From IMG/VR virus record IMGVR_UViG_3300027833_001904, positions 1 to 61,550 of that record: DNA of 61,550 bases; one strand, 5' to 3'. This document shows positions 14,234-37,650 of the stretch, piece after piece. The first letter of the stretch is position 1. Each line of letters begins with the position of its first letter. The notes beneath the pieces are model-generated. The model was not told the origin of the DNA. It did not search any database and was given only the letters and a program-made list of their open reading frames with translations. The position numbers and the translations under genes were made by a program. This stretch comes from a virus. Lineage: Duplodnaviria > Caudoviricetes.

Positions 14234-15238
14234 ATGCTTTACTCAACCATAAACAGTCTTCAATTTGATTTAAACGTTACTTGCAATGCATATTGCCCTG
14301 GTTGCCATAGACATACAATGGTAAACGGCGAGATGTATATGAATCCATTCCTACCATTTAATACTAGTCTTAATATTGATATAGTAGAACGTGTAATGGA
14401 AAACCCAAGACTTAGCGATAATGTAGAAGTAGACTTTGTAGGATTAGTAGGCGAGCCTATTGCTCATCAACAATTTCTAGAGATTATAGATATTATCTAT
14501 AAGCATAGACCAAATGCAAGAGTTAATATTCACACAAATGGTGGATTGCGTTCCGTAGAGTTCTTTACACAGCTTGCTAAAAAATTAAAAGATAAATCTC
14601 ATCAAGTGCAATTTTCAATCGATGGATTAGAAGATACAAACAGTTTATATCGTGTAGGTGTAAATTGGGATAAAGTAATGGAAAATCTACAAGCATTTAT
14701 AGATGCTGGTGGTCGTGCAGTATGGAAGTTTTTGCTTTTTCCATACAATAAACATCAAACAGAAGAAGCAAGACAATTGGCATTTTCAATGGGAGTTAAA
14801 AACTTTCGTCCAGAGAGAAATAGAGACGAAGGACAAGAACTGTATACACGTTATATGAAAGCATATAAAAAGTTTCACCCAAAAACACTAGGTGAAAAAG
14901 GCCATGCACAGGACAAAGGATATGACATAAATCAGTTTAACGAATCCCAAGGCATTGCAAATAGATGCTTTGACGAAGATGCAATTTATATAAATTACGA
15001 AGGCGTAGTATTACCATGTTGTATGTTTAATTCTGGATTAACAGATGAATCATATATGAAAGAGATGGTCCCATATATTAAAGGAAATACTTGCCATCAA
15101 AATGATGATGAAAATTGGAATAGCCTATATCATAATACATTAGAAGATGTTATGAATAATAGCTGGTGGGACAAGTTATATGGCGATTTAGACACAACTC
15201 CATGCACCGTTTGTGTGCATTCTTGCGGAATTCATTAA
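14234..15238 (+). CDS. Radical SAM protein with SPASM/twitch domain (paralogue 1)
   Basis: CNAYCPGC, GEP, HTNGG, FSIDG; C-terminal C...PCC...CxxCxxxC. Confidence 0.9.
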   Translation: MLYSTINSLQFDLNVTCNAYCPGCHRHTMVNGEMYMNPFLPFNTSLNIDIVERVMENPRLSDNVEVDFVGLVGEPIAHQQFLEIIDIIYKHRPNARVNIHTNGGLRSVEFFTQLAKKLKDKSHQVQFSIDGLEDTNSLYRVGVNWDKVMENLQAFIDAGGRAVWKFLLFPYNKHQTEEARQLAFSMGVKNFRPERNRDEGQELYTRYMKAYKKFHPKTLGEKGHAQDKGYDINQFNESQGIANRCFDEDAIYINYEGVVLPCCMFNSGLTDESYMKEMVPYIKGNTCHQNDDENWNSLYHNTLEDVMNNSWWDKLYGDLDTTPCTVCVHSCGIH

Positions 15239-15266
15239 AAAAGACGAAAAAAGATGCATTTTTCGG

Positions 15267-15295
15267 TTGACAACCAAGACATCTTAGTGTATATT
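15267..15295 (+). promoter_or_regulatory. Repeated early promoter TTGACAACCAAGACATCTT (copy 1)
   Basis: TTGACA-ACCAAGACATCTTAGTG-TATATT. Confidence 0.85.
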
Positions 15296-15327
15296 GTATA
15301 TATAAGCTAATAAAACAGGAGTTGAAA

Positions 15328-15666
15328 ATGCAAAACGAAATCCAAACATTGATCCAAAAATGTAAAGTAGATTATACAAAGTTTGTTACTGCTAGTGATC
15401 GTGGAACACCAGATCCAGATAGTTACTTTGGTAAAACACTTGCTAACTTTGAAAATAGTTTCACTATTAAAGAAGGCAAAAAGTATATTAAGATTATACG
15501 TGATAATGGTGTATGGGGCTTTATTGTTAAAGAAGATGGTCCTAAGTTTAAAAAAGGTGATATCCTTAAAGCTGCAGGTTGGAATGCTCCAGCAACAAAT
15601 GCCGCACGTGGTAACATTTTTGAAGACTTTAGTGTTGCGTGGACAGGTCCACATTACTTGAAATAA
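15328..15666 (+). CDS. Conserved phage hypothetical protein
   Basis: GKKYIKI...VWGFI...GDILKAAGWNAPA...RGNIF; AGGAG RBS. Confidence 0.8.
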   Translation: MQNEIQTLIQKCKVDYTKFVTASDRGTPDPDSYFGKTLANFENSFTIKEGKKYIKIIRDNGVWGFIVKEDGPKFKKGDILKAAGWNAPATNAARGNIFEDFSVAWTGPHYLK

Positions 15667-15676
15667 GGAAAAGCAA

Positions 15677-15829
15677 ATGAGTAAAACAGGAAACTGGGTA
15701 TTAGAAATGCAAGAAGATGCGTATGATATGACTCTTGCAGAATTTATTAAAAAACACGGCGAAAGCCAATCATCACTTTGGCATCAAACACAAGAAGAAG
15801 CCGAAGAAGGGGTTCTTATTGATGAGTAA
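15677..15829 (+). CDS. Small hypothetical protein (50 aa, not in ORF track)
   Basis: AAGGA RBS; MSKTGNWVLEMQEDA... read manually. Confidence 0.65.
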   Translation: MSKTGNWVLEMQEDAYDMTLAEFIKKHGESQSSLWHQTQEEAEEGVLIDE

Positions 15830-16082
15830 GGCTATTCAGCGTTACCTCAAACCCACACTATTCAAGCCTAAGGGTTCTGTATTCGAAGGCTTGATATGGA
15901 AACAACCTAACTCAAAAGGCACAGACACATATGATGTTGTATGCACCGAAAAAGGTTTTACTTGTGATTGTCCAGGCTTTACATTCCGTGGCAAGTGCAA
16001 GCACAGTTTAGAAGTGCTAACACGAGTAGAAACAGCATTAGATGACAAGCACCCACAATACAGATGGGAGTTTGCACAATGA
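15822..16082 (+). CDS. SWIM zinc-finger protein
   Basis: CDCPGFTFRGKCKH; likely start ATG 15822. Confidence 0.8.
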   Translation: MSKAIQRYLKPTLFKPKGSVFEGLIWKQPNSKGTDTYDVVCTEKGFTCDCPGFTFRGKCKHSLEVLTRVETALDDKHPQYRWEFAQ

Positions 16083-16804
16083 CAATTGCATATGTATTTG
16101 ATGTAGACGGAACACTAACACCAAGTCGTGAACGAATAGACTTTACGTTTGGTAAATTCTTCTACGAGTTTTGTTTGCACAATGATGTATATTTGGTCAC
16201 AGGAAGTGATAAAAGCAAAACAGTAGAACAAGTAGGTAACATTATATACAGTGGTGCTAAACGTGTGTATAATTGCAGTGGAAACGATGCATATGAAAAC
16301 TTTACTAATGTATATCGCAACGAATGGTCTCTACCAGAAGAACCTTGGAAATATTTAGAGAATAGATTAAACCATAGTAACTTTGGACAAAAATCAGGAC
16401 ATCATTTTGACGAACGTCCTGGGTTATTAAACTTTAGTGTTGTTGGAAGAAAATGCACAGCACAACAACGCAAGGATTATGTGTTGTATGATACATATCA
16501 TAAAGAACGTGAAAATATCTCAAAAGAATTTAATACAGCATATGGCGACAAATATAATATCATGTCAACTGTAGCTGGTGAAACAGGAATAGATATAACA
16601 CAACAAGGTTGTGGTAAAGCACAAATACTTAAAGACTTAGACTACGAAGAAATAATCTTCTTTGGTGACAAAACTATGACAGGTGGGAATGACTATGATA
16701 TTGCACAAGCACTAATAGGCATGGGCCATACTGTATTTTCAGTAAAGGAATGGGAAGATACTTATCGTATTTTAACACAAATGCATGAAACCCATACGAT
16801 CTGA
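16079..16804 (+). CDS. HAD-IIB hydrolase, eukaryote-type phosphomannomutase-like
   Basis: FDVDGTLT, VTGSD, RPGLLNFSVVGR, FFGDK...GGNDY. Confidence 0.85.
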   Translation: MTIAYVFDVDGTLTPSRERIDFTFGKFFYEFCLHNDVYLVTGSDKSKTVEQVGNIIYSGAKRVYNCSGNDAYENFTNVYRNEWSLPEEPWKYLENRLNHSNFGQKSGHHFDERPGLLNFSVVGRKCTAQQRKDYVLYDTYHKERENISKEFNTAYGDKYNIMSTVAGETGIDITQQGCGKAQILKDLDYEEIIFFGDKTMTGGNDYDIAQALIGMGHTVFSVKEWEDTYRILTQMHETHTI

Positions 16805-16973
16805 TAAACAATGGACATGGATGCCCAAGCGTATGAGCAGTGGAAAACTAGTATTCTGCACATACTATTATTATGAAGAATTCCTAAGAACAGCAGACCC
16901 TAGACACAATTGGGTTCATAGATATGAATATTCCAAACGAGAATATTTTATAAAAATACTTTCAGAAAAATAA
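16785..16973 (+). CDS. Hypothetical protein
   Basis: Coupled 62 aa ORF ending just before a terminator. Confidence 0.6.
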   Translation: MKPIRSDKQWTWMPKRMSSGKLVFCTYYYYEEFLRTADPRHNWVHRYEYSKREYFIKILSEK

Positions 16974-16974
16974 C

Positions 16975-17043
16975 AAGCCCTTGTAATGCAAGGGTTTTTT
17001 CTTTACGAATTCGGTTGACAACCAAGACATCTTAGTGTATATT
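16975..17043 (+). repeat. Terminator plus repeated early promoter unit (copy 2)
   Basis: CCCTTG-TAATG-CAAGGG-TTTTTT then TTGACAACCAAGACATCTTAGTG-TATATT; very similar to 60016-60084. Confidence 0.85.
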
Positions 17044-17078
17044 AGTAGTATAAGTTAAACAAACAGAAAGATTACAAC

Positions 17079-17369
17079 ATGTCAAATTATGCAACATTAA
17101 CAGAATCAATTAACACTGCAACTTTTAATGCAGAAAACTGGAATGCTGATGGTAGCATTAACTGGAGTTTTGTTGATGCAGATGCGTTTGATGAGTGTAA
17201 TAAATTGTTTGACGGAACAGCATTGTTTTACGAAGCATTTGATGAAATTGTAACAAATATGCGTAATGAAATGCGTGAAGAAGCACGTAGCGAAATGGAT
17301 TTATTGCAACGGTATCCAAATGCAATAGAGCAATTAGAAGTATTGAAAACAGACTTTTTAGGACAGTAA
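17079..17369 (+). CDS. Hypothetical early protein
   Basis: 96 aa ORF after repeated promoter. Confidence 0.7.
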   Translation: MSNYATLTESINTATFNAENWNADGSINWSFVDADAFDECNKLFDGTALFYEAFDEIVTNMRNEMREEARSEMDLLQRYPNAIEQLEVLKTDFLGQ

Positions 17370-17371
17370 TT

Positions 17372-17884
17372 ATGGATTTACAAACACAAGCACAAATATT
17401 TGCAACAGCGGCCCACGCCGCAATTGGGCAAAAACGTAAATATAGCGGAGACGATTATATTGTTCATCCTGCTCGAGTAGCCAGTATTGTTATGCGACAT
17501 GGTGGCACAGACGAGATGGTTGCCGCTGCTTGGTTGCATGATACTGTAGAAGATACTGATGTTACACCTATTCTTATCACTAAGATGTTTGGTGTTGATG
17601 TTGCAGATATCGTCGAAGGTCTTACTGATATTAGTTTACCCGAGGATGGTAATAGAGCAAAGCGTAAGTCAATTGACCGTATGCACAGTGCAAATGCATC
17701 AACTGAAGCACAGTTTGTAAAGTGTGCAGACATTGTTGACAACAGTTGGGATATTGCTGAAAACGATCTACATTTTGCAAAAGTATACAAATCAGAAGTA
17801 TTTCTTTTGTTAAATGCAATGACCAAAGTCAAGCATACTGAGATTTGGGAACAAGCAATGCAAAGCGTAGAGTTAATGCCTTAA
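17372..17884 (+). CDS. HD-domain hydrolase, (p)ppGpp hydrolase/Mesh1-like
   Basis: AHAAIGQKRK...YIVHP...AAAWLHDTVEDT...VKCAD. Confidence 0.85.
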   Translation: MDLQTQAQIFATAAHAAIGQKRKYSGDDYIVHPARVASIVMRHGGTDEMVAAAWLHDTVEDTDVTPILITKMFGVDVADIVEGLTDISLPEDGNRAKRKSIDRMHSANASTEAQFVKCADIVDNSWDIAENDLHFAKVYKSEVFLLLNAMTKVKHTEIWEQAMQSVELMP

Positions 17885-17906
17885 TTGGCATTAACTAAAT
17901 ACTTGT

Positions 17907-18905
17907 ATGCTTTATAAGAAAATAGATACAGTTGAGTTCGATCTTAACACAGTATGCAATAGTTATTGTCCGCCTTGTCATAGATATACAGTCCAAGACG
18001 GTGAGCTATTTCATAACCCACATGTAAAATTAGGTGTTAACTTAGAGTTAGACGTAATTGAGCGAGTGTTTGAGAACAGTAGAATTGCAGATGATTGTTT
18101 TGTCGATCTTGTAGGATTAGTAGGCGAACCAATTGCACACCCAAAGTTTATGGAAATTATAGATATTATCTATAAGCACAAACCTCATGCTGGAATAAAC
18201 TTACATACAAATGGTGGATTACGCACTGAAAAAATGTTCTATGATTTAGGCAAAAAGTTTAACAAGCACAGTTGGGTTAAATTTTCAATAGATGGATTAG
18301 AAGATACAAATGGTATATATCGTATTGGAGTAGACTATAATAAAGTAGTTGCAAATATGCGAGCATTCATAGATGGCGGAGGCCGTGCAATATGGAAATT
18401 TGTTACATTTCCGTGGAATGAACATCAAGTAGAACAAGCCGAAGCCTTAGCAAAAGAATATGGTTGCTATAAATTTCAACAAGATTGGGATGTGCATGAC
18501 CAAGATATACATGGATACATGGCTGCTGCACAGAAGAAAATTAATAAAAAGGTAGCGGCAGTAAGTGGTGGAGATGTTGAATTACCTGAGTTTGAATCAT
18601 ACACAATAGAAGATCGATGCTTTACATATAAAAAGATATATGTAAATGCACATGGATACGTTATCCCATGTTGTATGTTTAACGGTGCATTTACATATGT
18701 TAATTATAGAGAACAAACACTGAATTTTATTAAAGAAGGCAGAGACGAATACTGGAACAGTTTATATCATAATGACTTAGAAAGTATAATGAGTGATACA
18801 TGGTGGCAAAAACTAAAAGACAGTTTTGATGGCAATGCCTGTAACGTGTGTGTCAATGCGTGTAGTAATAATTCTGTAATTAAAAATGAACGCTATTTTG
18901 ATTGA
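17907..18905 (+). CDS. Radical SAM protein with SPASM/twitch domain (paralogue 2)
   Basis: CNSYCPPC, GEP, HTNGG, FSIDG; PCC...CNVCVNAC. Confidence 0.9.
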   Translation: MLYKKIDTVEFDLNTVCNSYCPPCHRYTVQDGELFHNPHVKLGVNLELDVIERVFENSRIADDCFVDLVGLVGEPIAHPKFMEIIDIIYKHKPHAGINLHTNGGLRTEKMFYDLGKKFNKHSWVKFSIDGLEDTNGIYRIGVDYNKVVANMRAFIDGGGRAIWKFVTFPWNEHQVEQAEALAKEYGCYKFQQDWDVHDQDIHGYMAAAQKKINKKVAAVSGGDVELPEFESYTIEDRCFTYKKIYVNAHGYVIPCCMFNGAFTYVNYREQTLNFIKEGRDEYWNSLYHNDLESIMSDTWWQKLKDSFDGNACNVCVNACSNNSVIKNERYFD

Positions 18906-18930
18906 CTTTATTCACTTAATAGTGTATTAT
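18902..18930 (+). promoter_or_regulatory. Sigma70-type promoter
   Basis: TTGACT-17nt-TATTAT. Confidence 0.65.
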
Positions 18931-18957
18931 ATAAATTAACAAATAAAGGAAAGAACA

Positions 18958-19185
18958 ATGATTTTAGAACTATTTAGTAACCCGTTAACATGGATGATGG
19001 CATTCTTTGTTATTGTATGTGCATGGCATAATTTTAAAGTTGGATACAAGCAAGGAGTCGCTGAAGGGGTAGACGTAGTTTTAGAAATGCTTAATGCAGA
19101 AAAATTAATAGATTTAGAAACTGGCGCTAATGGAGAAGTTATTATTCATGCCAGAGATGGCAGTTCAAGGAAGAAAGCTGGTTAG
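18958..19185 (+). CDS. Small membrane-anchored hypothetical protein
   Basis: N-terminal TM helix; GYKQGVAEG. Confidence 0.7.
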   Translation: MILELFSNPLTWMMAFFVIVCAWHNFKVGYKQGVAEGVDVVLEMLNAEKLIDLETGANGEVIIHARDGSSRKKAG

Positions 19186-20025
19186 ATGTATAGTAAGCAA
19201 GAATTACTAGATAAAAAACAAGCTGCCAACCTTGCATTAGAAAAATCAGAGGCACTAGAAACAAAATTTGCAGATAGATTTGAGATGGCAAGTTCATTGT
19301 TTGCAGTGTTAGACAAGCAACTTTTTATTGAATGTAATGATCTTGAACCAAACGATTCATATAGAATTGAAACATGGAAAGATGAAAATGTTCCAGATAA
19401 AAGTTATTCCTTGAATCACATTGGACCTGTGTTTGGATTTGATATTGATACTATGACAGGACCAGAAAGTTGGTATGATGAAGAATGTGGTGTAGATGAT
19501 TATGTGTTACGTAGAAAATGTTACATATATGATTGGACTGCAGAAAAATTAAAAGTAAACTTTCCAGAACTAACATATTTTACAGATTTACATAAAGAGT
19601 TTGTTCCAGTATTGCAACACTATTATAATGAATGTTTTGAGGATCAACATATAGATATTGCAAAAACGTTGCATAAACTTATGGTTATTGAATACTCGCA
19701 TCCAACTGCAAACGCTGGAACTATTATAGAACATAAAAAACACAATACAGATAGATTTGGCGATATACATTGTGACGAAACATTAGGTGGATTACACTTA
19801 GGTGAAAACGTAGTAGAATTTTATATACAGAATCACCTAACAAAAGAACGTAACTATGTAAGCGAATTATCAGAGAATAACACATTATGGTTCTTTGGTG
19901 AATTTAGTGAACGCAGTGGGTGGCAACCTAGTATGCATGGAATGAAACACAATCCAAGTGATGATACTTGGAAAAGATATAGTATAATTTTTGACTTACA
20001 AGCAAGATATAATGGAGAAGAATAA
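19186..20025 (+). CDS. Putative 2OG-Fe(II) oxygenase (IPNS-like fold)
   Basis: HCD...MHG...RYS (HxD...H...RxS). Confidence 0.6.
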
Positions 20026-20026
20026 A

Positions 20027-20617
20027 ATGGCATTAGTACCAATGGTGGTCGAGCAAACAGGCCGCGGAGAAAGAAGTTACGATATTTACAGTCGTCTATT
20101 AAAAGATCGTATTGTAATGTTAACAGGAGAAGTAAACGACATGACTGCTAATTTAGTAGTTGCACAGATGTTGTTTTTAGAATCACAAAATAGTGCAGAA
20201 GATATTAATTTTTATATTAATAGTCCAGGCGGTGCAGTTACAGCCGGGCTTGGAATTTATGACACAATGCAGTTTATTAAATCTTCAGTAAGCACAATTG
20301 TAATGGGACAAGCATGTAGCATGGGTAGTTTCCTTTCACAAGCAGGCGAACCAGGCAAGCGTTTAGTATTGCCAAACTCACGCACAATGATTCACCAACC
20401 AAGTGGTGGTGCAGGTGGACAAGCAACTGATATGCAAATTCAAGTTGATGAGATTCTCAAGATGAAAAAGAATCTAACACAAATTTATGTTAAACATAAT
20501 AGTGCAGGCAAAACATATGAAGAATTAGAAGCGGCAATGGAACGTGATAATTTTATGAGTGCCGAAGAAGCAGTTGCATATGGACTTGCTGATAAAGTTA
20601 TCGAACGAAAAGTATAA
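20027..20617 (+). CDS. clpP: ATP-dependent Clp protease proteolytic subunit
   Basis: [42 protein letters not shown]. Confidence 0.97.
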
Positions 20618-20652
20618 ACATAGGTTAGTTATATTTTTGTATAAATACTAGT

Positions 20653-21348
20653 ATGAAAATACACGACATATTAGAAAGACTCATAGACGAAGGTCCAAAC
20701 GATCCTGCTATATTTAAAGCTATATTTCTTGCTGGTGGCCCAGGCTCTGGCAAGAGTTACGTAGCAAGTAAAATATTATCAGGACTAGGCCTTAAGCCTG
20801 TTAACAGTGACGATGTGTATGAATACCTAGCTAACAAACATGATGTTGATTTAGGTAATCCAGACGAAGTTGCTAGTGATAAAGGTCAAGAAGCTAGAAA
20901 TCGTGCAAAACAACTTACTGATAAAAGACAAAATATATACATTGATGGTCGCCTCGGATTAATTATTGATGGAACAGGAAAAGACGTTCAAAAAGTAAAA
21001 GAACAAACTGTAAAATTAAAAAGTCTAGGATATGATTGTGCAATGGTATTTGTTAATACTAATCTACAAGTAGCACAAGAACGTAATGGCGATCGTAAAA
21101 GAAAACTTCCGGCAGAAATGGTGCAAACTATGTGGCGTCAAGTTCAAGAAAATATTATGAAGTTTCAGCAAGTATTTGGTGCAAAAGACTTCCACGTAGT
21201 AGACAACAGTGGCGGGCTAGAAGACCCAGAACGTAAAGAAAACTTTGATAATGTATACAAGAGTGTTAGAGCATTTGCTTCATCACCCCCATCTAGTCAC
21301 CATGCTAAAAAGTGGCAAGATGATGCAAAGAATAAAAATACCACTTAA
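20653..21348 (+). CDS. P-loop kinase (zeta toxin/AAA_33-like)
   Basis: GGPGSGKS, VNSDD, IIDGTG, ERNGDR lid motif. Confidence 0.8.
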   Translation: MKIHDILERLIDEGPNDPAIFKAIFLAGGPGSGKSYVASKILSGLGLKPVNSDDVYEYLANKHDVDLGNPDEVASDKGQEARNRAKQLTDKRQNIYIDGRLGLIIDGTGKDVQKVKEQTVKLKSLGYDCAMVFVNTNLQVAQERNGDRKRKLPAEMVQTMWRQVQENIMKFQQVFGAKDFHVVDNSGGLEDPERKENFDNVYKSVRAFASSPPSSHHAKKWQDDAKNKNTT

Positions 21349-21421
21349 ATCCCCCTAAAAAATAGGTAAATATATAACAACGACACTAATAGTGTCGCAT
21401 AGACATGGGTTAATAACAGTA

Positions 21422-21766
21422 ATGTATACATATAAAGCAAAACTAATTAGAGTCGTAGACGGTGATACTATTGATGCAGAGATAGATTTAGGATTTGATA
21501 CAATAGTTCGTAAACGAATTAGATTGTATGGAATTAACACACCGGACACTAAAACAAAAGATCTATCAGAAAAAGATAAAGGATTGGCAGCAAAACAACG
21601 TCTTACTGAATTACTTAGTAATGAATTTGTTGTTGAGACTATTTTAAATAAACGTGGGAAATATGGTAGAGTGTTGGGCGTAGTATATGCTATGGATAAT
21701 AAAACAAAAATAAATATAAATGAAACTTTGGTAGCTGAAGGACATGCTATCAAGTATCTTATATAA
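21422..21766 (+). CDS. Thermonuclease (SNase) family nuclease
   Basis: RVVDGDTI, RIRLYGINTPD, GKYGRVLG. Confidence 0.9.
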   Translation: MYTYKAKLIRVVDGDTIDAEIDLGFDTIVRKRIRLYGINTPDTKTKDLSEKDKGLAAKQRLTELLSNEFVVETILNKRGKYGRVLGVVYAMDNKTKININETLVAEGHAIKYLI

Positions 21767-21777
21767 GGTAAAAATAT

Positions 21778-23361
21778 ATGATAAGAATTTTTGGGTTTTG
21801 GACAATCTTTATAGCATTAGTAATTAGTGCAATAGCAGCCTATTATTCTATTATTGGATTAATTGCAATTTTTGCCGCAGCAGCAGTTCCTGTTATTATA
21901 ATGGGAACAGCATTAGAAATTGGTAAAATCACATCAGCTATTTGGTTACACTTAAAGTGGAAGACTGGTAAATGGCTTATTAAAGGATACTTAGTATTTG
22001 CAGTTGCATTGCTTATGTTCATTACAAGCATGGGTATCTTTGGATTCTTATCAAAAGCACACGTAGAACAAAATGCATCAATGTTAGAAGGCCAAGCACA
22101 GCTAGAACGTATTGAAGTAGAAATTACACGTGCTGAAGGTGAGATTACACGTGCTGAAGGTAAAATTGAAAAACTTTCAACAGCAGACACAAGCACAGAT
22201 GATGGCATACAAGAAAAGATTAGAGTAGCAGAATTAAGTATAACAACTGTATACGATAGATTAAAAGATGATGTTGAGTTTACGCAAGACTCACTAGATC
22301 AAGCAGCGGCACCATACTTAAAACAAGCCGAACAAGCAGATGCTACACTAGAAAAAATGAATACTTATGCAGAAACAAATAACATAACAGCATTACAAGG
22401 TTTAGTAGGTGCTGCACAAGACGGAAGAATGGGATCTAAAACAGCAAAACTTGTTTCAGAATTCCGTGATAAAGTTGAAAAGAATAGAATGATGGCACTA
22501 TTCCAACTACAAAAAATAAGAGAAAATAGCCAAGACGAAACTAAAGATCTTAGAGATGCTGCAGATAGAACAATAGCACAAACTAATAAACTTATTAATA
22601 GATTGCGTGAGCAATTAGGAACAGCAACAGACAATGATGTTGAACCCAAGATACAAGAATTACAAGTTAAAATTAAAGACTTTGAACTAAATTTAGATAC
22701 ACTGTTTGAACAGAAATATGCCATCGAAGCTGAAGGTAGAGAACTAGAAGCAGATGTAGGTCCTGTAAAATATATTGCAGAACTGGTATATGGTGAAGAG
22801 GCAGATAGAGATTCACTTGAAGATGCAGTTAGATGGGTAATACTACTACTTGTTATAGTATTTGATCCACTTGCAATTGTATTGGTTATTTCAGGAATAT
22901 CTCTTGTTGAAGAATACCCTAGAAAAAAGAGGATTCGCAATGAAGATAAAATTACTGAAACAACACCAAAGACTGACCTGGTGGAGAAAACTGTCAAAGA
23001 AACGAAAGCCCGTAAGGAACCTAAAAGCCCAAAAGTAACCCCTAACCAACCAGAACCTAGTTCTGACGCAATAGAATTTAAAGGTGTAGTATACGAACCC
23101 ACAGATTATGCATACCACCGCATTAAAGATCAGATAGATGCCAACGATAAACATCGCAAAATTATCAGTAACCAAACTAAGGTAAATAATATTGTAGAAA
23201 GAATGGAACTTGACGAGAAGACAACAGATGTTGATATTGTTAAGAAACGTTTAGAACAAATGTTTGAAGAAGATAATGCAAAAGCAGAGTTACTAACAAA
23301 TGCCGATACTAAAACAATACATGAAGTATTTAAAGATATTATTAAGGACACTAAGAAATAG
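21778..23361 (+). CDS. Multi-TM membrane protein with long coiled coil
   Basis: Three N-terminal hydrophobic helices, coiled coil, VIVFDPLAIVLV TM segment. Confidence 0.75.
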   Translation: MIRIFGFWTIFIALVISAIAAYYSIIGLIAIFAAAAVPVIIMGTALEIGKITSAIWLHLKWKTGKWLIKGYLVFAVALLMFITSMGIFGFLSKAHVEQNASMLEGQAQLERIEVEITRAEGEITRAEGKIEKLSTADTSTDDGIQEKIRVAELSITTVYDRLKDDVEFTQDSLDQAAAPYLKQAEQADATLEKMNTYAETNNITALQGLVGAAQDGRMGSKTAKLVSEFRDKVEKNRMMALFQLQKIRENSQDETKDLRDAADRTIAQTNKLINRLREQLGTATDNDVEPKIQELQVKIKDFELNLDTLFEQKYAIEAEGRELEADVGPVKYIAELVYGEEADRDSLEDAVRWVILLLVIVFDPLAIVLVISGISLVEEYPRKKRIRNEDKITETTPKTDLVEKTVKETKARKEPKSPKVTPNQPEPSSDAIEFKGVVYEPTDYAYHRIKDQIDANDKHRKIISNQTKVNNIVERMELDEKTTDVDIVKKRLEQMFEEDNAKAELLTNADTKTIHEVFKDIIKDTKK

Positions 23362-23364
23362 TAG

Positions 23365-23817
23365 ATGAACTTAAACGACAATAGCAGTTATACGGTCACT
23401 GCACCAGATTTATTCCTACAATTAAACGGATTAAATGTTTTAATTACAAGCACAAACAAAGAGTTAATTGATAACTTCAAATTAATATTTGAAAAATTTA
23501 TTAGATCAAGCGTAGTTTTTAATGTGCAACAACGAGTAACAAAACCAGATAGTTTGCCGTGGATGTGGCACGTTAGCAGAACATGTGAATATATGTTAGT
23601 TGACTTAGATACATGTGCATGGGAAGATATAATGGCTGCGTTATTAAAGCGAATGGATGATAATCATTCTGTAATTTTTTATAGTGAAAAGAAAGTAAGA
23701 CGAGAAGCAATAAAATTGATTAACGCAACCAGCAACTATATTATAATTAACAACTTAGAAGAATTAAATAAATTCTTAGACATAGATACTCAATACCCAG
23801 GCATGCCAGATGAGTAA
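23365..23817 (+). CDS. Hypothetical protein
   Basis: 150 aa coupled ORF upstream of clpX. Confidence 0.7.
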   Translation: MNLNDNSSYTVTAPDLFLQLNGLNVLITSTNKELIDNFKLIFEKFIRSSVVFNVQQRVTKPDSLPWMWHVSRTCEYMLVDLDTCAWEDIMAALLKRMDDNHSVIFYSEKKVRREAIKLINATSNYIIINNLEELNKFLDIDTQYPGMPDE

Positions 23818-25009: not shown

Positions 25010-25010
25010 G

Positions 25011-28456: not shown

Positions 28457-28695
28457 TGTTACATACAGTAGAATCATTATTAGAAAAAATTAATGCAATG
28501 CACTCAAAAGCATTATTACTACACAGACTTCGTAATCAATATTCAGAAGCATCAGGAAAAACATACGACCATGCGGAGTGTCAAGCCCTTATCGATGATA
28601 TTCAATACATGGCTAAACTTATTTCAAACGATAAGCAAGGCGATGAGATTAAAACCGAAATGGAATACACGAAATTTTTAAAGGATGAAAAATGA
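28456..28695 (+). CDS. Hypothetical protein
   Basis: Coupled ORF with GGAGG RBS. Confidence 0.7.
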
Positions 28696-29813
28696 GAATA
28701 GACCAGGATATTAAACTAGACTACAGTGATGTGTTAATTCGCCCAAAACGTAGCACACTTAAAAGTCGTAGTCAAGTAAGACTTGAACGCAAGTTTAAAT
28801 TTAGAAATAGCAGGCACGAATACGAAGGTATTCCTATTATGGCTGCTAACATGGACGGTGTTGGAACATTTGCACTAGCAGATACACTAGCCCAACAAAG
28901 TATGTTTACATGTTTAGTAAAAACATATTCAGTAGAAAAACTTGTAGAATACTTTGATAAAGGTCTTCAAATCAGAACAGAACATGTTGCTATGAGTATT
29001 GGCACAAGTTGGGAAGACTTTGACAAATTAACAAAAGTTTGTAAATTGAGTAGTGGATTAAAGTATGTATGCATGGATATTGCAAATGGTTATAGTGATC
29101 ACTTTGCACAGCATGTAAGGAAAGTGCGTGATGCATTTCCTAATTTAATAATTATAGCAGGTAATGTAGTTACCGGAGAAATGACAGAGGAGTTAATACT
29201 TGCAGGAGCAGATATCATTAAAGTTGGAATCGGACCAGGAAGCGTCTGCACAACAAGAATTCAAACAGGAGTCGGGTATCCGCAACTTAGTGCAGTCATT
29301 GAGTGTGCAGATGCGGCACATGGGCTTGGCGGACATATTATCGCTGATGGGGGCTGTAACTCTAGTGGTGATGTGGCTAAAGCATTTGCTGGCGGCGCCG
29401 ATTTTGTAATGCTAGGCGGTATGCTTGCAGGACACAATGAAGGTGGTGGCGATGTTATTACAAAATATTATGAAACAACTGAACTTGTATACGAAATAGG
29501 TTCGCACTTAGATAAGCATACACGTAAGATTGAAACAAAACAATTTGTAGCGTTCTACGGTATGAGTTCAGATGCAGCAAATACAAAACACTTTGGTGGA
29601 CTAAAAGACTATCGTGCAAGCGAAGGTCGAGAAGTATTAGTTCCATACCGAGGAGATGTTAAAGACACAATTCAAAGTATATTGGGTGGTATTAGATCAA
29701 CTTGCACATATTCAGGTGCAATGAAACTCAAACAACTTAGTAAATGCACTACGTTCGTTCGTGTTAACAATCAGTTTAACAGAACATACGAAAGCACAAC
29801 AACCAAAATATAA
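28692..29813 (+). CDS. guaC: GMP reductase
   Basis: [51 protein letters not shown]. Confidence 0.95.
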
Positions 29814-32367: not shown

Positions 32368-32370
32368 AAT

Positions 32371-32772
32371 TTATTCCTCTTCTATTTTAGTATTTTTATA
32401 TACTTGATCATTAAACGACTTACCTTTAACTCCACATTCTTTAATACAGATAGGTGAAGGATTGTCACTTTCCCAACCCTCATAATTTATGTATGATTTA
32501 TATATTGGGTGTTCTAGAATTTCATCCCATGTATTTTTGGTTAAGTCGTTAAAATCGGGATCGTCTTTTAACAGTTTAGCTAATTTTTCATCTGGGTTAG
32601 TTCCAGCACTTTTGGTATTCCATCCTTGTATCCAAACACAACATGGCCATAGTTTACCATCATGATCAACTTCCATTTCTCTTTGTAATACATAAGGGTC
32701 TAAATCTTTACGTTGATCTTTTTCATCAAGTTTTACAGTTCGCATACAATTTGGTTTTATTAAATGTTTCAT
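32371..32772 (-). CDS. Stand-alone SPASM/twitch-like domain protein
   Basis: PNC...VDHDGKLWPCC...ICIKEC. Confidence 0.75.
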   Translation of the reverse strand: MKHLIKPNCMRTVKLDEKDQRKDLDPYVLQREMEVDHDGKLWPCCVWIQGWNTKSAGTNPDEKLAKLLKDDPDFNDLTKNTWDEILEHPIYKSYINYEGWESDNPSPICIKECGVKGKSFNDQVYKNTKIEEE

Positions 32773-33038
32773 TACCAGTCCCATCTCCAAGGCAGTATTG
32801 AATAACCTAACATATTAAAATACATTTCAATTAGATACGTGAATAATATAAAGAAAGTTGTTTTAACTATAAATCTCCACGGTTGAGGTAAACTATTCTG
32901 CCATCTATTGAATCTACTTCCTTGGACTTTCTCTTCTAGATTATTTTTAGTCCATATCTTTTCTGCCCACCAGCCTGCATCTAAAATATTTTTTAGCATA
33001 ATAACTGGCCAGAATATAATTTTAATTATACGTTTCAT
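32772..33038 (-). CDS. Small Trp-rich membrane protein
   Basis: Hydrophobic segments; coupled to both neighbours. Confidence 0.65.
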   Translation of the reverse strand: MKRIIKIIFWPVIMLKNILDAGWWAEKIWTKNNLEEKVQGSRFNRWQNSLPQPWRFIVKTTFFILFTYLIEMYFNMLGYSILPWRWDW

Positions 33039-33679
33039 TTCAACTCCTCTATAAGTTCTTTACATGCTGCTTTGTTTTCATCACTTATTAAACCTAGACT
33101 ACGGTTGTTAAATTTAAAGTTAATATTAATACCATGTTCTTTTGCCATTGCATACGCCTCAGTAACTTCTTGCCAATTCCATTCAAAAATAAGAAAGTGC
33201 CATTCCATTTCAGCATCTGTTTTTGCCATTGCTATCATATTATCCATAGCCCGTTGCCAATCCACACCTTCTCTATATTTCCAATTACTCTCATGGGTTA
33301 TACCATCTATCCCAAAAATTATCACAAATCCATGGCCATGCTTGTTGCCCATCTTAGTATACCAGTCTGGAGTTCTTAGTCCGCCATTTGTATTGATAAT
33401 AAGTCTATTTACGCTTTCTTTAGATAATGCACGATCAACAAATTTTGTTATATCAGGATGCATCATAGGATCGCCTAGCTCTCCGCAAAATTGAATAGTT
33501 TTTAATTTATCAGGAGAACCAGTAAGCACCTTATCAAATAAATCATAGGGCATATGGCTAGGAATTAACCAATCTTCGGGTTGACCTGTGTCTTGGTTAG
33601 TTCGTTGGCAGCTTCTGCATCTTGCCTGACAATATGTCGTAATAGCAAAATCAGTCCATATTATAGGCTCATGTATCAT
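33035..33679 (-). CDS. Radical SAM protein, core domain only (paralogue 3)
   Basis: CQARCRSC, GELGDP, NTNGG, FGIDG; likely start ATG 33679. Confidence 0.88.
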   Translation of the reverse strand: MIHEPIIWTDFAITTYCQARCRSCQRTNQDTGQPEDWLIPSHMPYDLFDKVLTGSPDKLKTIQFCGELGDPMMHPDITKFVDRALSKESVNRLIINTNGGLRTPDWYTKMGNKHGHGFVIIFGIDGITHESNWKYREGVDWQRAMDNMIAMAKTDAEMEWHFLIFEWNWQEVTEAYAMAKEHGININFKFNNRSLGLISDENKAACKELIEELK

Positions 33680-33684
33680 ACTTG

Positions 33685-33699
33685 TATTTAGCATAAATA
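33685..33699. promoter_or_regulatory. Back-to-back divergent late promoters
   Basis: TATTTA-GCA-TAAATA between divergent genes. Confidence 0.65.
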
Positions 33700-33726
33700 A
33701 GTATGTAGTTAATAAAAGGACAACAT

Positions 33727-34494
33727 GTGAATTATTTAAATAATTGTCACAAATATAGACAAGACATTATAGACAGGTTTGAACCTGCTTATGTAATGGA
33801 AAAGTTTTTCTCTGATAATGACTTGCAAAAACTTATGGACTATCAGTTCCAAAATGCAAAGCGTGTAAAAGCAAGAGTAACGGGTATGAACATACAAAGT
33901 GTTGTAAGTGTGCAAAAGATGTTCAGAGAAAACCAATGGCTTGCTGATAAATTTACAGAAGCATTGGGAGAGTTCGATGAAGTATTAACAGGTAATTTTT
34001 ATATTACTATAATGCACCACGATGCTCATGTGGATTTAATCAATGAAGATGAAGAAAACGATCCAGTGTTCCATAACCTAATACCTTGGAAAAGTGTAGT
34101 GTTTCCAATATTCCTATCAGACAATGCAGACTGCTACACAGCATTTATGGATCAACGTAGAATAGGATATGCAGCCACATTTGATAGAATATCATTAACT
34201 GATCAAGGCGATAGTAGTTATAAACTGTTTAGAGATTATGATGGATTCTTAGATGTAAATGGAAATCCATTACCAAGCACAAATGATAGTCCAGGATGGA
34301 CCGAAGAAAAGTATCCAATACTACCTAAAGAAAACTTTAGTGGATTTAGTGAAGAAGCAATATTTAAACAAAAAATGGGAGATGTTATGGTTTTTGATGC
34401 ATGTCAAGTTCATGCTAGTTGTCAACTTCCAGGTTCTAATTCACATTGGATGAAAAACGGCATGAATATTCAATTCTATAAGTCTGCAAGGTAA
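33727..34494 (+). CDS. Putative 2OG-Fe(II) oxygenase-fold protein (paralogue of 11267-12016)
   Basis: HDAHVD...FDACQVHAS...KNGMNIQFY. Confidence 0.6.
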   Translation: MNYLNNCHKYRQDIIDRFEPAYVMEKFFSDNDLQKLMDYQFQNAKRVKARVTGMNIQSVVSVQKMFRENQWLADKFTEALGEFDEVLTGNFYITIMHHDAHVDLINEDEENDPVFHNLIPWKSVVFPIFLSDNADCYTAFMDQRRIGYAATFDRISLTDQGDSSYKLFRDYDGFLDVNGNPLPSTNDSPGWTEEKYPILPKENFSGFSEEAIFKQKMGDVMVFDACQVHASCQLPGSNSHWMKNGMNIQFYKSAR

Positions 34495-34504
34495 ATACAA
34501 GTGG

Positions 34505-34533
34505 TTGCAATATACCACAACATGTAGTATAAT
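34505..34533 (+). promoter_or_regulatory. Sigma70-type promoter for iscSU
   Basis: TTGCAA-17nt-TATAAT. Confidence 0.65.
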
Positions 34534-34572
34534 ATAACATTAAATATTCACACTTTCGGATTAATTATTACT

Positions 34573-35787
34573 ATGACATCTCCAACATACATGGATTATT
34601 CAGCAACAACACCGGTAGACCACCGAGTTGCAGAGAAAATGGCAGAGTGCCTATCAATAGAAGGCACCTTTGGAAACCCGGCATCTCGCTCACATTATTA
34701 TGGGTGGCAAGCCGAAGCGGCAGTAGACAAAGCACGTAAACAAGTAGCAGATTTAGTAGGAGCAGATCCTAAAGAAATAGTATGGACATCTGGTGCTACC
34801 GAATCAAACAACTTAGCACTTAAAGGTATTGCACACTTTTATAAAAAGCGTGGCAATCATATTATTACGCTAAAAACAGAACACAAGGCAATACTAGATA
34901 CTTGCCGTCAACTAGAGCGTGAAGGATTTGAAGTTACATACATGAGTCCATTACCTAGTGGACTATTAGACATTGAAGAATTAAAAGCTACAATACGAGA
35001 AGATACAATACTAGCTTCATTTATGCATGTTAATAATGAGATTGGTGTTATACAAGACTTACAAGTTATTGGTGATATTTGCAGAGAACGTAAAGTATTC
35101 TTTCATGTTGATGCATCACAATCAGTTGGTAAACTTCCAATAAACTTAACAGAACTTCCAGTTGACTTAATGAGTTTTTCAGCACACAAGATATATGGGC
35201 CAAAAGGAATGGGAGCTCTTTATGTATCACGCAAGCCACGAGTTAGACTTGAGGCGCAGATGCATGGTGGTGGACACGAACGTGGAATGCGATCAGGCAC
35301 ATTAGCTACACATCAAATTGTTGGCATGGGCGAAGCATTTGCAATTGCACAAGAAATGATGGCAGACGAAGAAGTTAGAACACGTGGACTTAGAGATAGG
35401 TTATACGCTGGCTTCTCTGACATGGAAGAAGTAAAAGTAAATGGCGATATGGAACAACGTATTGGCAATAACTTAAATATTAGTTTTAATCATGTAGAAG
35501 GCGAATCGCTAATGATGGCAATAAACGGCATTGCAGTATCATCAGGATCAGCATGCACATCAGCAAGTTTAGAACCTTCTTACGTTCTTAGAGCAATAGG
35601 ATTACCAGATGAATTATCTGCTAGTTCAATACGTTTTAGTGTAGGACGCTTTACAACAGAAAAAGATGTTGACAATGCAATTACACTTGTTAGACAAAAA
35701 GTAGAAAAATTAAGAGAACTATCGCCACTATGGGATATGTATAAAGATGGAATTGATTTAAACACAGTAGTATGGGCTGCTCATTAG
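34573..35787 (+). CDS. iscS: Cysteine desulfurase
   Basis: [27 protein letters not shown] (PLP lysine), SSGSACTS. Confidence 0.97.
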
Positions 35788-35816
35788 AGTAGTCTTAAAT
35801 AATATAGGATAAGATT

Positions 35817-36227
35817 ATGGCATATTCAGACAAAGTAATGGATCATTATGAGAACCCACGTAATGTAGGTAAGTTTGATCCCAAAGAAAGTAATATTGGA
35901 ACAGGAATGGTTGGAGCTCCTGCTTGCGGTGATGTAATGAGATTACAAATTCAAGTAGAAGATGGTATTATTACTGATGCTAAATTTAAAACATATGGTT
36001 GTGGTAGTGCAATTGCAAGTAGCAGTTTACTAACTACAATGGTAAAAGGTATGAATTTAGAAGAAGCTGGTGCAATCCAAAACATGGACCTTGCAGATGA
36101 ACTTGCATTACCTCCAGTTAAGATTCACTGTAGTGTATTAGCCGAAGATGCAATTAAATCTGCAATAGCAGATTATCAAGGCAAAAACCCAGTGCCAGAA
36201 GGCGCCAATTATTTTGAAATTAAATAA
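35817..36227 (+). CDS. iscU: Fe-S cluster scaffold protein
   Basis: MAYSDKVMDHYENPRNVG, APACGD, GCGSA, LPPVKIHC. Confidence 0.97.
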   Translation: MAYSDKVMDHYENPRNVGKFDPKESNIGTGMVGAPACGDVMRLQIQVEDGIITDAKFKTYGCGSAIASSSLLTTMVKGMNLEEAGAIQNMDLADELALPPVKIHCSVLAEDAIKSAIADYQGKNPVPEGANYFEIK

Positions 36228-36230
36228 AGG

Positions 36231-36261
36231 TTGACATTTTATACACTTTCGTGTATAAATA
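36231..36261 (+). promoter_or_regulatory. Overlapping sigma70 and late promoter for tmRNA
   Basis: TTGACA-17nt-TATAAA, where the -10 is also a perfect TATAAATA. Confidence 0.75.
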
Positions 36262-36266
36262 ACATT

Positions 36267-36560
36267 GTAACGTTGAAGCGATTTGACGACTATACTGGAC
36301 CTCGGGGCAGTACCGAGCAGCTCCACCAAAAACATACTAGTGTCCAGTTAAGTTTGGAACACATCTGATAAAGTGGCTAGTATGTTTTTGATGGGGCTGA
36401 ACTAGGATCGACAGGTAGGATAGATGAGTGGAGTTACCGGGATGTAAGCGCCGTTACCGCGAACAAACTTTATAATTGCAAATAACAATTATGCGCCAGA
36501 AATGGCATTAGCAGCCTAGAGTTGCTATGAGGTAACTATACCTTATTACCCAAACTAGTA
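36267..36560 (+). ncRNA. ssrA: Circularly permuted (two-piece) tmRNA, tag ANNNYAPEMALAA
   Basis: Acceptor piece with T-arm and CAGCTCCACCA (ends 36328) precedes GGGGCTGAA 5' end (36393); tag frame 36478-36519; outer ends approximate. Confidence 0.92.
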
Positions 36561-36561
36561 G

Positions 36562-36588
36562 AAAGGGTGTCTTAGGGCACCCTTTTTT
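36562..36588 (+). terminator. Intrinsic terminator after tmRNA
   Basis: AAAGGGTGTC-TTAG-GGCACCCTTTTTT. Confidence 0.88.
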
Positions 36589-36606
36589 GAGGCAATAAAT
36601 ACTAGC

Positions 36607-37650
36607 ATGATATATTCCAAGAAGCCATTAATATTACAATTAGAATTAAGCAGTATGTGTAATGCATTATGCTTAGGCTGTCAGCGTGTCGATCCAAATA
36701 CATTTAACAGTGTGCATCCAGATATCCCTAAAAAGGAAATGATATCAGTTGATACAATACACAAATTAATGAATAGCCCAGCAATGGCTAGTATAGAGGA
36801 AATACAATTTTGTGGAACAATAGACGAGCCACTAATGCATCCAAATTTTATGGAAATACTAGATGTTATGTATGAAGCGAATCCAGAACTAGACATAGAA
36901 ATACATACAAATGCAAGTTTAAGGACAACTGAATTTTGGAGAGACCTAGCACATAAGTTATCCAAGTTTAAGAAACATAAAGTATTATTTGGCATAGATG
37001 GGTTAGTTGACACACATGAAATATATAGACAGCAAACAAATTTTGATCTCATTATTAGAAATGCAGTGCATTTTATACGTGCAGGCGGGAATGCACAATG
37101 GCAGTATATTATCTTTCCATGGAATAAACATCAAGTAGAAGAAGCACGTAACATGAGTAATAGTTTAGGATTTAAGGAATTTAAAACTCGTAATGATAGA
37201 AGTGGAGTAAGCGAAGAAGGACTTGACTTAGTAAGAGAAATACAACAAAATCCAACAACTAGTAAAGAAGGAACAGATGTGAGTATATACAATGGGTATG
37301 CGATTAGTTGTATGAATCACGATGAAGACATGTATCATGTTTCATACGATGGCAGACTTTGGCCTTGTTGCTATTTTGGTAATGTAAAGTATATGGGTCC
37401 AAAATTGTATAACGAATTTAAGCAGAGAATATTTGGAGTGTATGGCGAAGATTTTAATTTACTTACCAAACACACAGTAGAAGAAATATTAGATTCAGAT
37501 TTATATAAAAACGATTTAGTAGAGTCTTGGAATAATCCAATAGGTTGCGGCAGTAAAGATAAAGTAAATCGTTGTGCAATGTCGTGTAGTGTAAAAGCAC
37601 TTGAAACCAGACCAATTGCAACAGCACATAAAATTACAGAAAACTTTTAA
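36607..37650 (+). CDS. Radical SAM protein with SPASM/twitch domain (paralogue 4)
   Basis: CNALCLGC, HTNAS, FGIDG, YDGRLWPCC, RCAMSC. Confidence 0.9.
   Translation: MIYSKKPLILQLELSSMCNALCLGCQRVDPNTFNSVHPDIPKKEMISVDTIHKLMNSPAMASIEEIQFCGTIDEPLMHPNFMEILDVMYEANPELDIEIHTNASLRTTEFWRDLAHKLSKFKKHKVLFGIDGLVDTHEIYRQQTNFDLIIRNAVHFIRAGGNAQWQYIIFPWNKHQVEEARNMSNSLGFKEFKTRNDRSGVSEEGLDLVREIQQNPTTSKEGTDVSIYNGYAISCMNHDEDMYHVSYDGRLWPCCYFGNVKYMGPKLYNEFKQRIFGVYGEDFNLLTKHTVEEILDSDLYKNDLVESWNNPIGCGSKDKVNRCAMSCSVKALETRPIATAHKITENF

Follow-up and report, generated by a model that had tools for sequence, protein, structure and literature searches.

Four radical SAM paralogues of a marine phage, one of them encoded as two coupled polypeptides, belong to old twitch-like subfamilies that may act on carbohydrates

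A 61,550-bp stretch of viral DNA (hereafter the window; it is the complete IMG/VR virus record IMGVR_UViG_3300027833_001904, with a completeness rating of 17%) was found to carry four related genes for radical S-adenosylmethionine (SAM) enzymes, referred to here as paralogues 1-4 and dispersed among other genes. Each represents an old subfamily with orthologues in other contigs, and in one of these subfamilies the core and the cysteine-rich C-terminal domain are made as two translationally coupled polypeptides. The possibility tentatively favoured here, from the gene neighbourhoods of relatives and from co-location in the window, is that these enzymes tailor carbohydrates and are supported by an IscS/IscU pair and an FNR-like reductase that the phage itself encodes.

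When the whole record was searched with the paralogue 1 protein, exactly four places were returned (100, 49, 36 and 29% identity; E 2e-242 to 1e-21). The four related CxxxCxxC genes of the original prediction, which had been made from this DNA alone, are thus real, and a count over the 61,550-bp record gave four family members. Paralogue 1 (14234-15238, plus strand; 334 residues) has a radical SAM core followed by a C-terminal twitch-like Cys domain. Its sister, paralogue 2 (17907-18905, plus strand; 332 residues), is 49% identical to it and evolves slowly. Paralogue 3 lies on the minus strand, where 33035-33694 encodes a core subunit of 219 residues consisting of the radical SAM barrel only. 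Paralogue 4 (36607-37650, plus strand; 347 residues; 36% identical to paralogue 1) is placed between a transfer-messenger RNA (tmRNA) gene and a transfer RNA (tRNA) array. A four-way alignment contained 29 invariant columns, including C17/C21/C24, R26, T101-N102, F127-x-I-D130-G131, Y139-R140 and N172. Most of the shared motifs proposed earlier (C-x-R, TN(G/A), F(S/G)IDG and YR) were recovered; the NxxQ motif fails in paralogue 3, which has N-W-Q-E there. The identical DNA blocks that had been pointed out in paralogues 1 and 2 are exact, occur twice each and were matched in 0 of 100 shuffles, but they are barely above expectation: the two genes share 61% of their nucleotides and 49% of their amino acids, with a longest identical run of 23 nt, and a run of that length was reached in 3.2% of 2,000 resamplings that kept both proteins and the codon usage. 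The blocks can therefore be put down largely to conserved peptides and codon bias. Gene conversion between the two genes, considered as well, was set aside (weak support at best; p about 0.03).

The Pfam Radical_SAM profile (PF04055; cut-off 29.5 bits) was passed by paralogues 1-3 (43.6, 37.1 and 34.9 bits, respectively), while paralogue 4 gave no match to it at E<=0.1, though it is 36% identical to paralogue 1. The CxxxCxxC motif lies near the N-terminus of all four copies and is invariant in 76 of 76 full-length relatives. An AlphaFold2 model of paralogue 1 (pLDDT 92, pTM 0.91) showed a partial TIM-barrel fold on comparison with solved radical SAM enzymes (Z up to 18.6). Its residues 1-334 aligned to twitch/SPASM enzymes with effectively tied scores of Z 16-18.6: SuiB 18.6, SkfB 18.0, anSME 17.7, DesII 17.3, MoaA 17.2, BlsE 17.1 and BtrN 16.6, with ChlB, CteB, PqqE and viperins also among the structural neighbours. 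A search of PDB sequences with a four-paralogue profile returned nothing below E 0.027. By motif, Pfam match and predicted partial TIM barrel, the four copies are radical SAM enzymes. The proteins begin 16 residues before the cluster motif (which runs from residue 17), and the N-terminal peptide-recognition (RRE) domain is absent, residue 1 of the model aligning to residue 101 of SuiB, 102 of SkfB and 89-91 of CteB.

Cysteine conservation across the 76 full-length relatives is confined to the three SAM-cluster residues and to five near the C-terminus (columns 243/245, 262, 263, 327 and 331, each conserved in 62-76 of the 76), which form a family-specific pattern, C-x16-CC...C-x3-C. SPASM domains reportedly have a seven-Cys pattern and two auxiliary clusters, a definition that the five conserved C-terminal columns of this family do not reach. 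In the twitch subclass the C-terminal domain is abridged, with a C-x(n)-G-x4-C hairpin and cysteines for one auxiliary cluster; the motif C-x11-G-x4-CC plus C-x3-C fits this definition, the number and type of clusters being predicted. The SPASM profile (PF13186; cut-off 21.5 bits) was missed by the three full-length copies (14.5, 18.2 and 19.0 bits) and passed only by the separate C-terminal open reading frame (ORF) of paralogue 3. Of the SPASM/twitch label given earlier to these genes, the twitch-like C-terminal Cys domain holds, but a full SPASM domain does not, given the sub-cut-off scores and five conserved cysteines. To judge from the superfamily, the five C-terminal cysteines probably hold one auxiliary [4Fe-4S] cluster, which would make the domain twitch-type.

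Paralogue 3 had been placed at 33035-33679 as one CxxxCxxC enzyme. The enzyme is there, but this interval spans no more than its N-terminal core; a gene of its own on the minus strand encodes the Cys domain (32371-32772; 133 residues from the ATG at 32772; SPASM PF13186 22.2 bits versus 21.5). Between the two lies an orphan ORF of 88 codons (32772-33038, minus strand), within a 266-bp insertion that is bounded by a 7-bp direct repeat (ATGAAAC) and has the Cys-domain start codon as its exact insertion point. This insertion was seen in the window only, and its ORF is coupled on both sides; no relative of the ORF was found in the window or in 148 loci by blastn/tblastn, and it was a singleton on ORF clustering. 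In the core tree described below, paralogue 3 falls within a clade of 13 members, all of which are split, and a second, unrelated clade of nine is also split. Homologous separate Cys-domain ORFs follow the core in the relatives, and at the 13 junctions examined the ATG of the second ORF lay at, or overlapped, the end of the first. Since the split is kept in relatives with coupled ORFs, it is an inherited two-gene arrangement rather than damage: one subfamily makes core and Cys domain as two translationally coupled polypeptides. An intron was considered as the cause of the split and rejected, Rfam at gathering thresholds returning only the tmRNA and tRNAs. The opposite arrangement was also encountered: four family representatives (P0249, P0273, P0275 and P0353) of 771-856 residues contain two or three matched stretches and appear to be tandem fusions.

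A word-indexed search returned 230 relatives, all unnamed or with a generic label. An exhaustive profile search gave 20,167 representatives (clusters at 50% identity) at E<=1e-3, 3,939 at E<=1e-10 and 1,720 at E<=1e-30. None of the curated NCBIfam models came near its cut-off, the best being NF033640 (42.3-63.0 versus 170 bits) and TIGR04317 (38-55.5 versus 380 bits); weak sub-cut-off matches to the MoaA and NirJ families were also seen. Among isolate phages, a DNA search with 14000-19000 gave no match, and protein searches gave only half-length matches of 23-28% identity, to pelagiphage Mosig and Campylobacter phages. Neighbour clusters in the ESM Atlas were 91-100% viral.

In a core tree of 104 sequences each window copy was placed in a well-supported subfamily of its own that also contains orthologues from other contigs. 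The clades of paralogues 1 and 2 are sisters and have five members apiece (support 96 and 100), and both genes are syntenic in four related loci (L001-L004); paralogue 4 is in a clade of 26. Identity to the top orthologue was 88% for paralogue 2, 81% for paralogue 4, 72% for paralogue 3 and 62% for paralogue 1. The original prediction had called the set a diversifying one. This does not agree with the tree: each copy sits in a deep subfamily with syntenic orthologues elsewhere, so the paralogy is old and conserved rather than a recent expansion. Branch lengths differ within the sister pair, orthologues of paralogue 1 (0.2-0.3) having branches three to six times longer than those of paralogue 2 (0.03-0.1). 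In a joint tree, viral and bacterial members interleave, with at least two and most parsimoniously six changes between the two; the window's three subfamilies stand in a part with 56 viral and 2 bacterial members.

The genes for cluster supply lie between paralogues 3 and 4: an IscS/NifS-like cysteine desulfurase (34573-35787, plus strand; Aminotran_5 E 2.7e-82) and an IscU scaffold (35817-36227, plus strand; NifU_N E 8.6e-51). A candidate electron source, an FNR-like FAD/NAD(P)-binding reductase (10485-11270, plus strand; 506 bits with a hidden Markov model (HMM)), heads the gene block that ends in paralogue 1; it falls into one cluster with L006:9212-9994, a gene with matches to NAD_binding_1 and FAD_binding_6. 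Between paralogues 1 and 2 there is a phosphomannomutase-type HAD enzyme (16064-16804, plus strand; PF03332 PMM E 2.2e-24), syntenic in L001 and L003. Immediately before paralogue 1, 14006-14218 (plus strand) encodes orf70, a Cys-rich CxxC...CxxC protein of 70 residues with no Pfam match, which is 71-94% identical in three relatives and has an invariant C-terminal tail. It is far more conserved than the adjoining paralogue 1.

A scan of IMG/VR gave 66 related viral loci, most of them with several family members. When all ORFs of the loci were clustered (clusters are designated c plus a number), two contexts emerged. One has the window-like order FNR-like, c2, c36, c5, c13, (orf70), radical SAM, PMM, HD protein, radical SAM, c19, ClpP ... 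ClpX. The other is a dense island of ~20 kb (for example in L011, L016, L022, L031 and L040) with a carbamoyltransferase gene, three c3 genes, c4 and 8-11 radical SAM genes of three families, together with SGNH-like, SDR-like and c2 genes. The family stands beside N_Twi_rSAM genes and/or a third radical SAM family in 44 of the 66 viral loci. N_Twi_rSAM was present in 44, c2 in 35, c3 in 35, c4 in 34, c5 in 27, c6 in 20, the third radical SAM family in 19, carbamoyltransferase (Carbam_trans_N/C) in 14 and c13 in 12. The cluster 1 companion is a true NF033640 N_Twi_rSAM (425.7 bits versus a cut-off of 170). A model of c3 (pLDDT 80) matched GT-A folds of the nucleotide-sugar type (PcManGT, chlorovirus hyaluronan synthase and the PBCV-1 capsid glycosyltransferase). 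Among the genes at the flanks, similarity to shikimate dehydrogenase (E 1e-12) and to a thiamine-enzyme E1-beta domain (E 3e-6) was noted; a GatZ-like assignment of cluster 47 was too weak to be kept (E 0.0065). Whole related records contained 19, 20, 14, 8 and 4 Radical_SAM matches. Those with 19 (the 233-kb record containing L011) and 20 (a 91-kb record containing L064) are partial genomes, and they exceed the published phage counts found (11-12). Just upstream of the island in 14 of the 66 viral loci is cluster 17 (L016:3340-4617, minus strand, and relatives), of 425-441 residues with G-D/N-V-x-G repeats; by its sequence it looks fibre-like, which would place a structural gene next to the island.

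The window itself holds c2 (twice), c4, c5, c13, c36, c19 and the FNR-like gene. The first c2 copy (11267-12016, plus strand) has an invariant H-x-D...H and is 2-oxoglutarate/cupin-like by motif only; the second (33727-34494, plus strand) adjoins the paralogue 3 core in divergent orientation. The c2 proteins had no Pfam, PHROG or PDB sequence match, and in the ESM Atlas they led only to unnamed viral clusters, with a 14% hint of DUF6445. The c4 gene, a recurrent neighbour of the radical SAM family, is at 38701-39633 (plus strand; HMM 386 bits), separated from paralogue 4 by the tRNA array; 635 relatives of c4 were found, none of them named and none with a Pfam domain. No PDB sequence was credibly matched by the profiles of c2, c3 or c4. 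The conserved genes c5 (12870-13280) and c13 (13277-13789) are upstream of paralogue 1 on the plus strand.

Relatives also occur in bacteria. A scan of one genome per prokaryotic species gave 117 relatives, and 79 loci were kept, labelled as Bdellovibrionota (39), Pseudomonadota (15) and Myxococcota (7) among others; short contigs of metagenome-assembled genomes among them may be mis-binned phage DNA. Nine of the loci are on contigs of 0.8-3.9 Mb, with flanks that include housekeeping genes (arginyl-tRNA synthetase, SecY). In 37 of the 79 the family was beside N_Twi_rSAM or the third radical SAM family; N_Twi_rSAM was found in 31, SDR-like genes in 11, c4 in 10, c3 in 5, carbamoyltransferase in 4, c6 in 1 and c5 in 0. 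In the cultured Bdellovibrio sp. HCB2-146 (2.2-Mb contig) the cluster is part of a polysaccharide locus, its genes being interspersed with three GT2 genes and with GNAT, fatty-acid-hydroxylase-type, UDP-glucose/GDP-mannose dehydrogenase and NAD epimerase/dehydratase genes.

These neighbourhoods suggest, tentatively, that the family tailors carbohydrates. By analogy with the superfamily, the first cluster would bind and cleave SAM, and the resulting 5'-deoxyadenosyl radical would take a hydrogen from the substrate. To go by the relatives' surroundings, the subfamilies may perform different steps on carbohydrates, whether nucleotide-sugars, a growing glycan or a glycoside, and the likely reactions would be oxidation, epimerisation, dehydration or decarboxylation, as carried out by BtrN, DesII and BlsE; old, stable subfamilies fit a multi-step pathway. 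They would be part of a larger pathway to which, in other genomes, N_Twi_rSAM enzymes, a carbamoyltransferase, GT-A-fold transferases and members of the third radical SAM family also belong. The end product could be a free compound or be placed on the virion, DNA or host envelope. As their co-location suggests, the phage IscS and IscU would assemble the clusters, and the FNR-like flavoprotein would give reducing power to these oxygen-sensitive enzymes.

Several observations weigh against this assignment. The link to carbohydrates comes from relatives, bacterial ones of 25-35% identity and island-type viral ones of ~30%, and the window is without c3, N_Twi_rSAM, carbamoyltransferase or any glycosyltransferase. 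The GT-A assignment of c3 came with Foldseek E values of 2e-4 to 1e-3 and TM <=0.44, and the same match list contains nucleotidyltransferases (HddC, IspDF). A polysaccharide context was seen in one bacterial locus only; six other chromosomal loci are flanked mostly by housekeeping genes (Pfam, 82 ORFs), the GT1 family, among the 25 commonest families listed, being matched by 2 of the 82 flanking ORFs. The six best structural neighbours by Z act on peptides or proteins (SuiB, SkfB and anSME among them), with differences that lie within ties, and the small conserved proteins beside some copies (orf70, c5 and c6) could be peptide substrates.

The last two points bear on an unlikely alternative, in which the enzymes would be peptide or protein maturases that introduce a cross-link, an epimerisation or an oxidation into a phage protein or precursor (orf70, c5 or c6), like SkfB, SuiB, CteB and anSME. 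The original prediction had likewise expected protein substrates such as tail fibres. Protein modification retains some probability because the fold comparison ties peptide- and sugar-acting enzymes (Z 16-18.6), with SuiB (18.6), SkfB (18.0) and anSME (17.7) at its top; moreover, orf70 is conserved (71-94%) right before paralogue 1 and its orthologues, and family members are preceded by c5 in 27 and by c6 in 20 of the 66 viral loci. Enzymes of this kind can also act on proteins without a recognition domain, an example being anSME. An N-terminal peptide-recognition domain is lacking here, however, and five C-terminal cysteines are conserved versus the seven of SPASM maturases; no conserved small ORF stands beside paralogues 2, 3 or 4; among the 79 bacterial loci, where the radical SAM module does occur, c6 was found once and c5 never; and the recurring partners are enzymes of carbohydrate type. 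A complex prediction for paralogue 1 with orf70 scored 0.00 against a mark of 0.32, which is no evidence either way. The idea that a multi-copy twitch/SPASM-type radical SAM set serves the phage as a modification toolkit is supported, but tail fibres or other proteins as its direct substrates are disfavoured by the missing peptide-recognition domain, the carbohydrate-type neighbours of the relatives and the restriction of a small conserved neighbour to paralogue 1. A glycan product could still end up on virion proteins.

It is less probable again that the enzymes modify nucleotides, DNA or tRNA, giving a hypermodified base or nucleoside, possibly sugar-decorated, that would protect phage DNA or retune translation. 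Paralogue 4 does lie between the tmRNA gene and an array of seven tRNAs, a DNA methylase and an IMPDH/GMP-reductase-type gene are present in the window, the structural neighbours include MoaA (Z 17.2), BlsE and viperins, whose substrates are nucleotides or nucleosides, and Campylobacter phage CP220, reported to have 11 radical SAM genes (PMC2853527), is the sole isolate-phage match besides pelagiphage Mosig. Yet adjacency to tRNA genes holds for one copy only, the Bdellovibrionota module is beside GT2 and sugar-nucleotide genes rather than nucleotide metabolism, and QueE, TYW1, MiaB and other curated nucleic-acid families gave no match near their cut-offs. Very improbable is a role as boosters of host metabolism, with cofactor-maturation copies (of the MoaA, NirJ, heme or tungsten-cofactor type) keeping anaerobic or cofactor pathways of the host running. 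Such a role has been proposed in print for CP220 (PMC2853527), and the weak profile matches to TIGR04317 (38-55 bits), MoaA and NirJ would agree with it; these matches are, however, far under the curated cut-offs (55.5 versus 380 bits, for example), the ESM Atlas neighbour clusters are 91-100% viral, and the family makes up a large clade of its own in which a genome has several paralogous subfamilies, in contrast to cofactor genes present in a single copy.

The carbohydrate-tailoring reading can be taken further, into a proposal that we regard as rather doubtful. In it, very large marine phages, with genomes of about 360 kb, would share with predatory Bdellovibrionota a radical-SAM-rich pathway of ~10-20 enzymes, comprising three radical SAM families (split forms included), GT-A transferases and a carbamoyltransferase, that builds an undescribed tailored glycan or glycoside; the window's paralogues would be dispersed steps of it, provided with their own Fe-S assembly and reductase in surface seawater hosts. 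Its product could decorate the virion or the envelope of the infected cell. If the family does tailor sugars, the product would be new to science and made in organisms common in the sea, and, with 14-20 radical SAM matches in partial related phage genomes, the sugar-tailoring pathway would be among the most radical-SAM-dense known. The family is without a name, a curated model or a studied member, yet radical SAM enzymes do some of the hardest chemistry in biology. The conserved split between core and Cys domain provides a natural setting in which the role of the auxiliary domain could be studied, and a module common to phages and to bacteria that prey on bacteria makes the cultured, tractable Bdellovibrio available for functional tests.

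As to expression, three of the copies, described as inserted singly among early or RNA genes, had each been credited with a late box of their own. An ATAAATA box does lie 12 nt before the ATG of paralogue 1 (14222-14228, plus strand) and of paralogue 4 (36595-36601, plus strand), but not before paralogues 2 and 3. The exact sequence TATAAATA occurs six times in the window versus 11.6 expected, and is therefore rarer than chance; its only occurrence near any copy is at 36254, inside the tmRNA gene, and none directly serves a paralogue. ATAAATA is also depleted overall (27 versus 39.5 expected), with 25 of the 27 on the plus strand. Thirteen of these 25 lie 8-75 nt before a gene start versus 9% expected (p=4e-8), and at three sites (14222, 20641 and 36595) the spacing to an ATG is exactly 12 nt. 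From its placement, ATAAATA is likely to be a promoter element. A sigma-70-like site precedes orf70 and paralogue 1 (13791-13819, plus strand; 12 of 12 positions, TG-extended), by consensus match only. In three studies, RNA libraries yielded contigs identical to parts of orf70 and of paralogues 1 and 2, a weak hint that these genes are transcribed, as RNA libraries may contain DNA; uncovered stretches such as 18622-19223 are uninformative.

The remainder of the window gives some indication of the phage and its host. Related records have completeness ratings of 65% (233 kb), 52% (192 kb), 35% (128 kb), 25% (91 kb) and 24% (86 kb), and relatives of c4, which is one gene of the window, are on contigs of 356 and 360 kb; the parent genome is estimated at ~360 kb. 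Near-identical DNA was found in 10 marine metagenome runs from 8 studies, beyond the 4 possible source samples, with 72-89% of sampled words matched. Upstream of the interval covered by the original prediction the window has one more radical SAM gene, its fifth; it is of the B12-binding kind and unrelated to the four paralogues (5891-7798, plus strand). It lies between two plus-strand ORFs, each with a match to a different stretch of the AMP-binding enzyme profile (4525-5943, profile positions 9-67; 9732-10430, positions 170-376), and a SAM methyltransferase gene is at 3837-4490; the region 4525-10430 may encode a split adenylating enzyme or a further small pathway.

The tmRNA gene directly preceding paralogue 4 is permuted and of alpha-proteobacterial type (36227-36610, plus strand; RF04321 110.8 bits, RF01849 96.5 bits; tag peptide by ARAGORN), which hints at an alphaproteobacterial host. 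Ten tRNAs were found in the window, and the seven-tRNA array adjoins paralogue 4. On top of these comes a cell-like set of proteostasis and translation genes, for ClpP (by sequence), ClpX, an IF3 homologue, DnaJ and a ClpB-like ATPase (19991-25532 and 47046-50031). Further genes encode an M17 aminopeptidase, a DNA methylase, PhoH, a GH108 lysin and a ligase. An IMPDH/GMP-reductase-domain gene (28692-29813, plus strand; E 1.8e-70) is also present, and the radical SAM matches in isolate phages include Campylobacter phages. In Campylobacter phage DNA, guanine is replaced.

Many radical SAM genes in one phage have been reported before. Marine T4-like environmental genomes with IscU or ATC carry up to 12 (in one 183-kb genome), and phage Fe-S genes were proposed to serve phage Fe-S proteins (Nishimura 2017; PMC5332604); Campylobacter phages CP220 and CPt10 have 11-12, CP220 having 11 (Timms 2010; PMC2853527). 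The phages of these two reports resemble the present one in combining many radical SAM genes with phage-encoded Fe-S assembly genes, and the co-located IscS, IscU and FNR-like genes of the window make the 2017 idea, of phage Fe-S assembly for phage Fe-S enzymes, directly testable. Unlike the present analysis, both reports give superfamily counts and define neither families nor a pathway, and the CP220 proteins are 25-28% identical to the window copies over 50-73% of the query. A brine-pool preprint, considered as a prior account, was discarded, its relevant part concerning other radical SAM genes. The literature search, to which supplementary tables possibly listing the same genes did not belong, returned no description of the family, the split forms, the island or the Bdellovibrionota link.

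Among curated families, NF033640 N_Twi_rSAM is the most similar: its profile is the best for the core of paralogues 1, 2 and 4 and nearly ties for the best in paralogue 3 (55.9, 46.5, 42.3 and 63.0 bits for paralogues 1-4, over model positions ~106-273 only). These scores are, however, far under 170 bits, and the Cys-rich domain is C-terminal in the window copies and N-terminal in NF033640, for the function of which no characterisation was found in the literature searched. The top structural scores were shared with SuiB (5v1s), SkfB (6efn), CteB (5why) and anSME (4k37) (Z 17.1-18.6; Foldseek E 2e-10 to 1e-7), from which the window copies differ in having no N-terminal recognition domain, five rather than seven C-terminal cysteines and, in the full-length copies, SPASM scores below the cut-off. 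The adjacent precursor-peptide gene that is a trait of SuiB and CteB could have a counterpart in orf70 beside paralogue 1 and its orthologues only, none being seen beside paralogues 2-4. BtrN (4m7t), DesII (8hzv) and BlsE (7vob) are only 12-17% identical in sequence to the window copies, whose Cys pattern is specific to the family, and a substrate like theirs is suggested here by neighbourhood. They nevertheless have the same fold over the full length (Z 16.6-17.3, 222-257 residues aligned) and a similarly short C-terminal Cys domain, and it is in a carbohydrate-gene context that the relatives of the window family are found.

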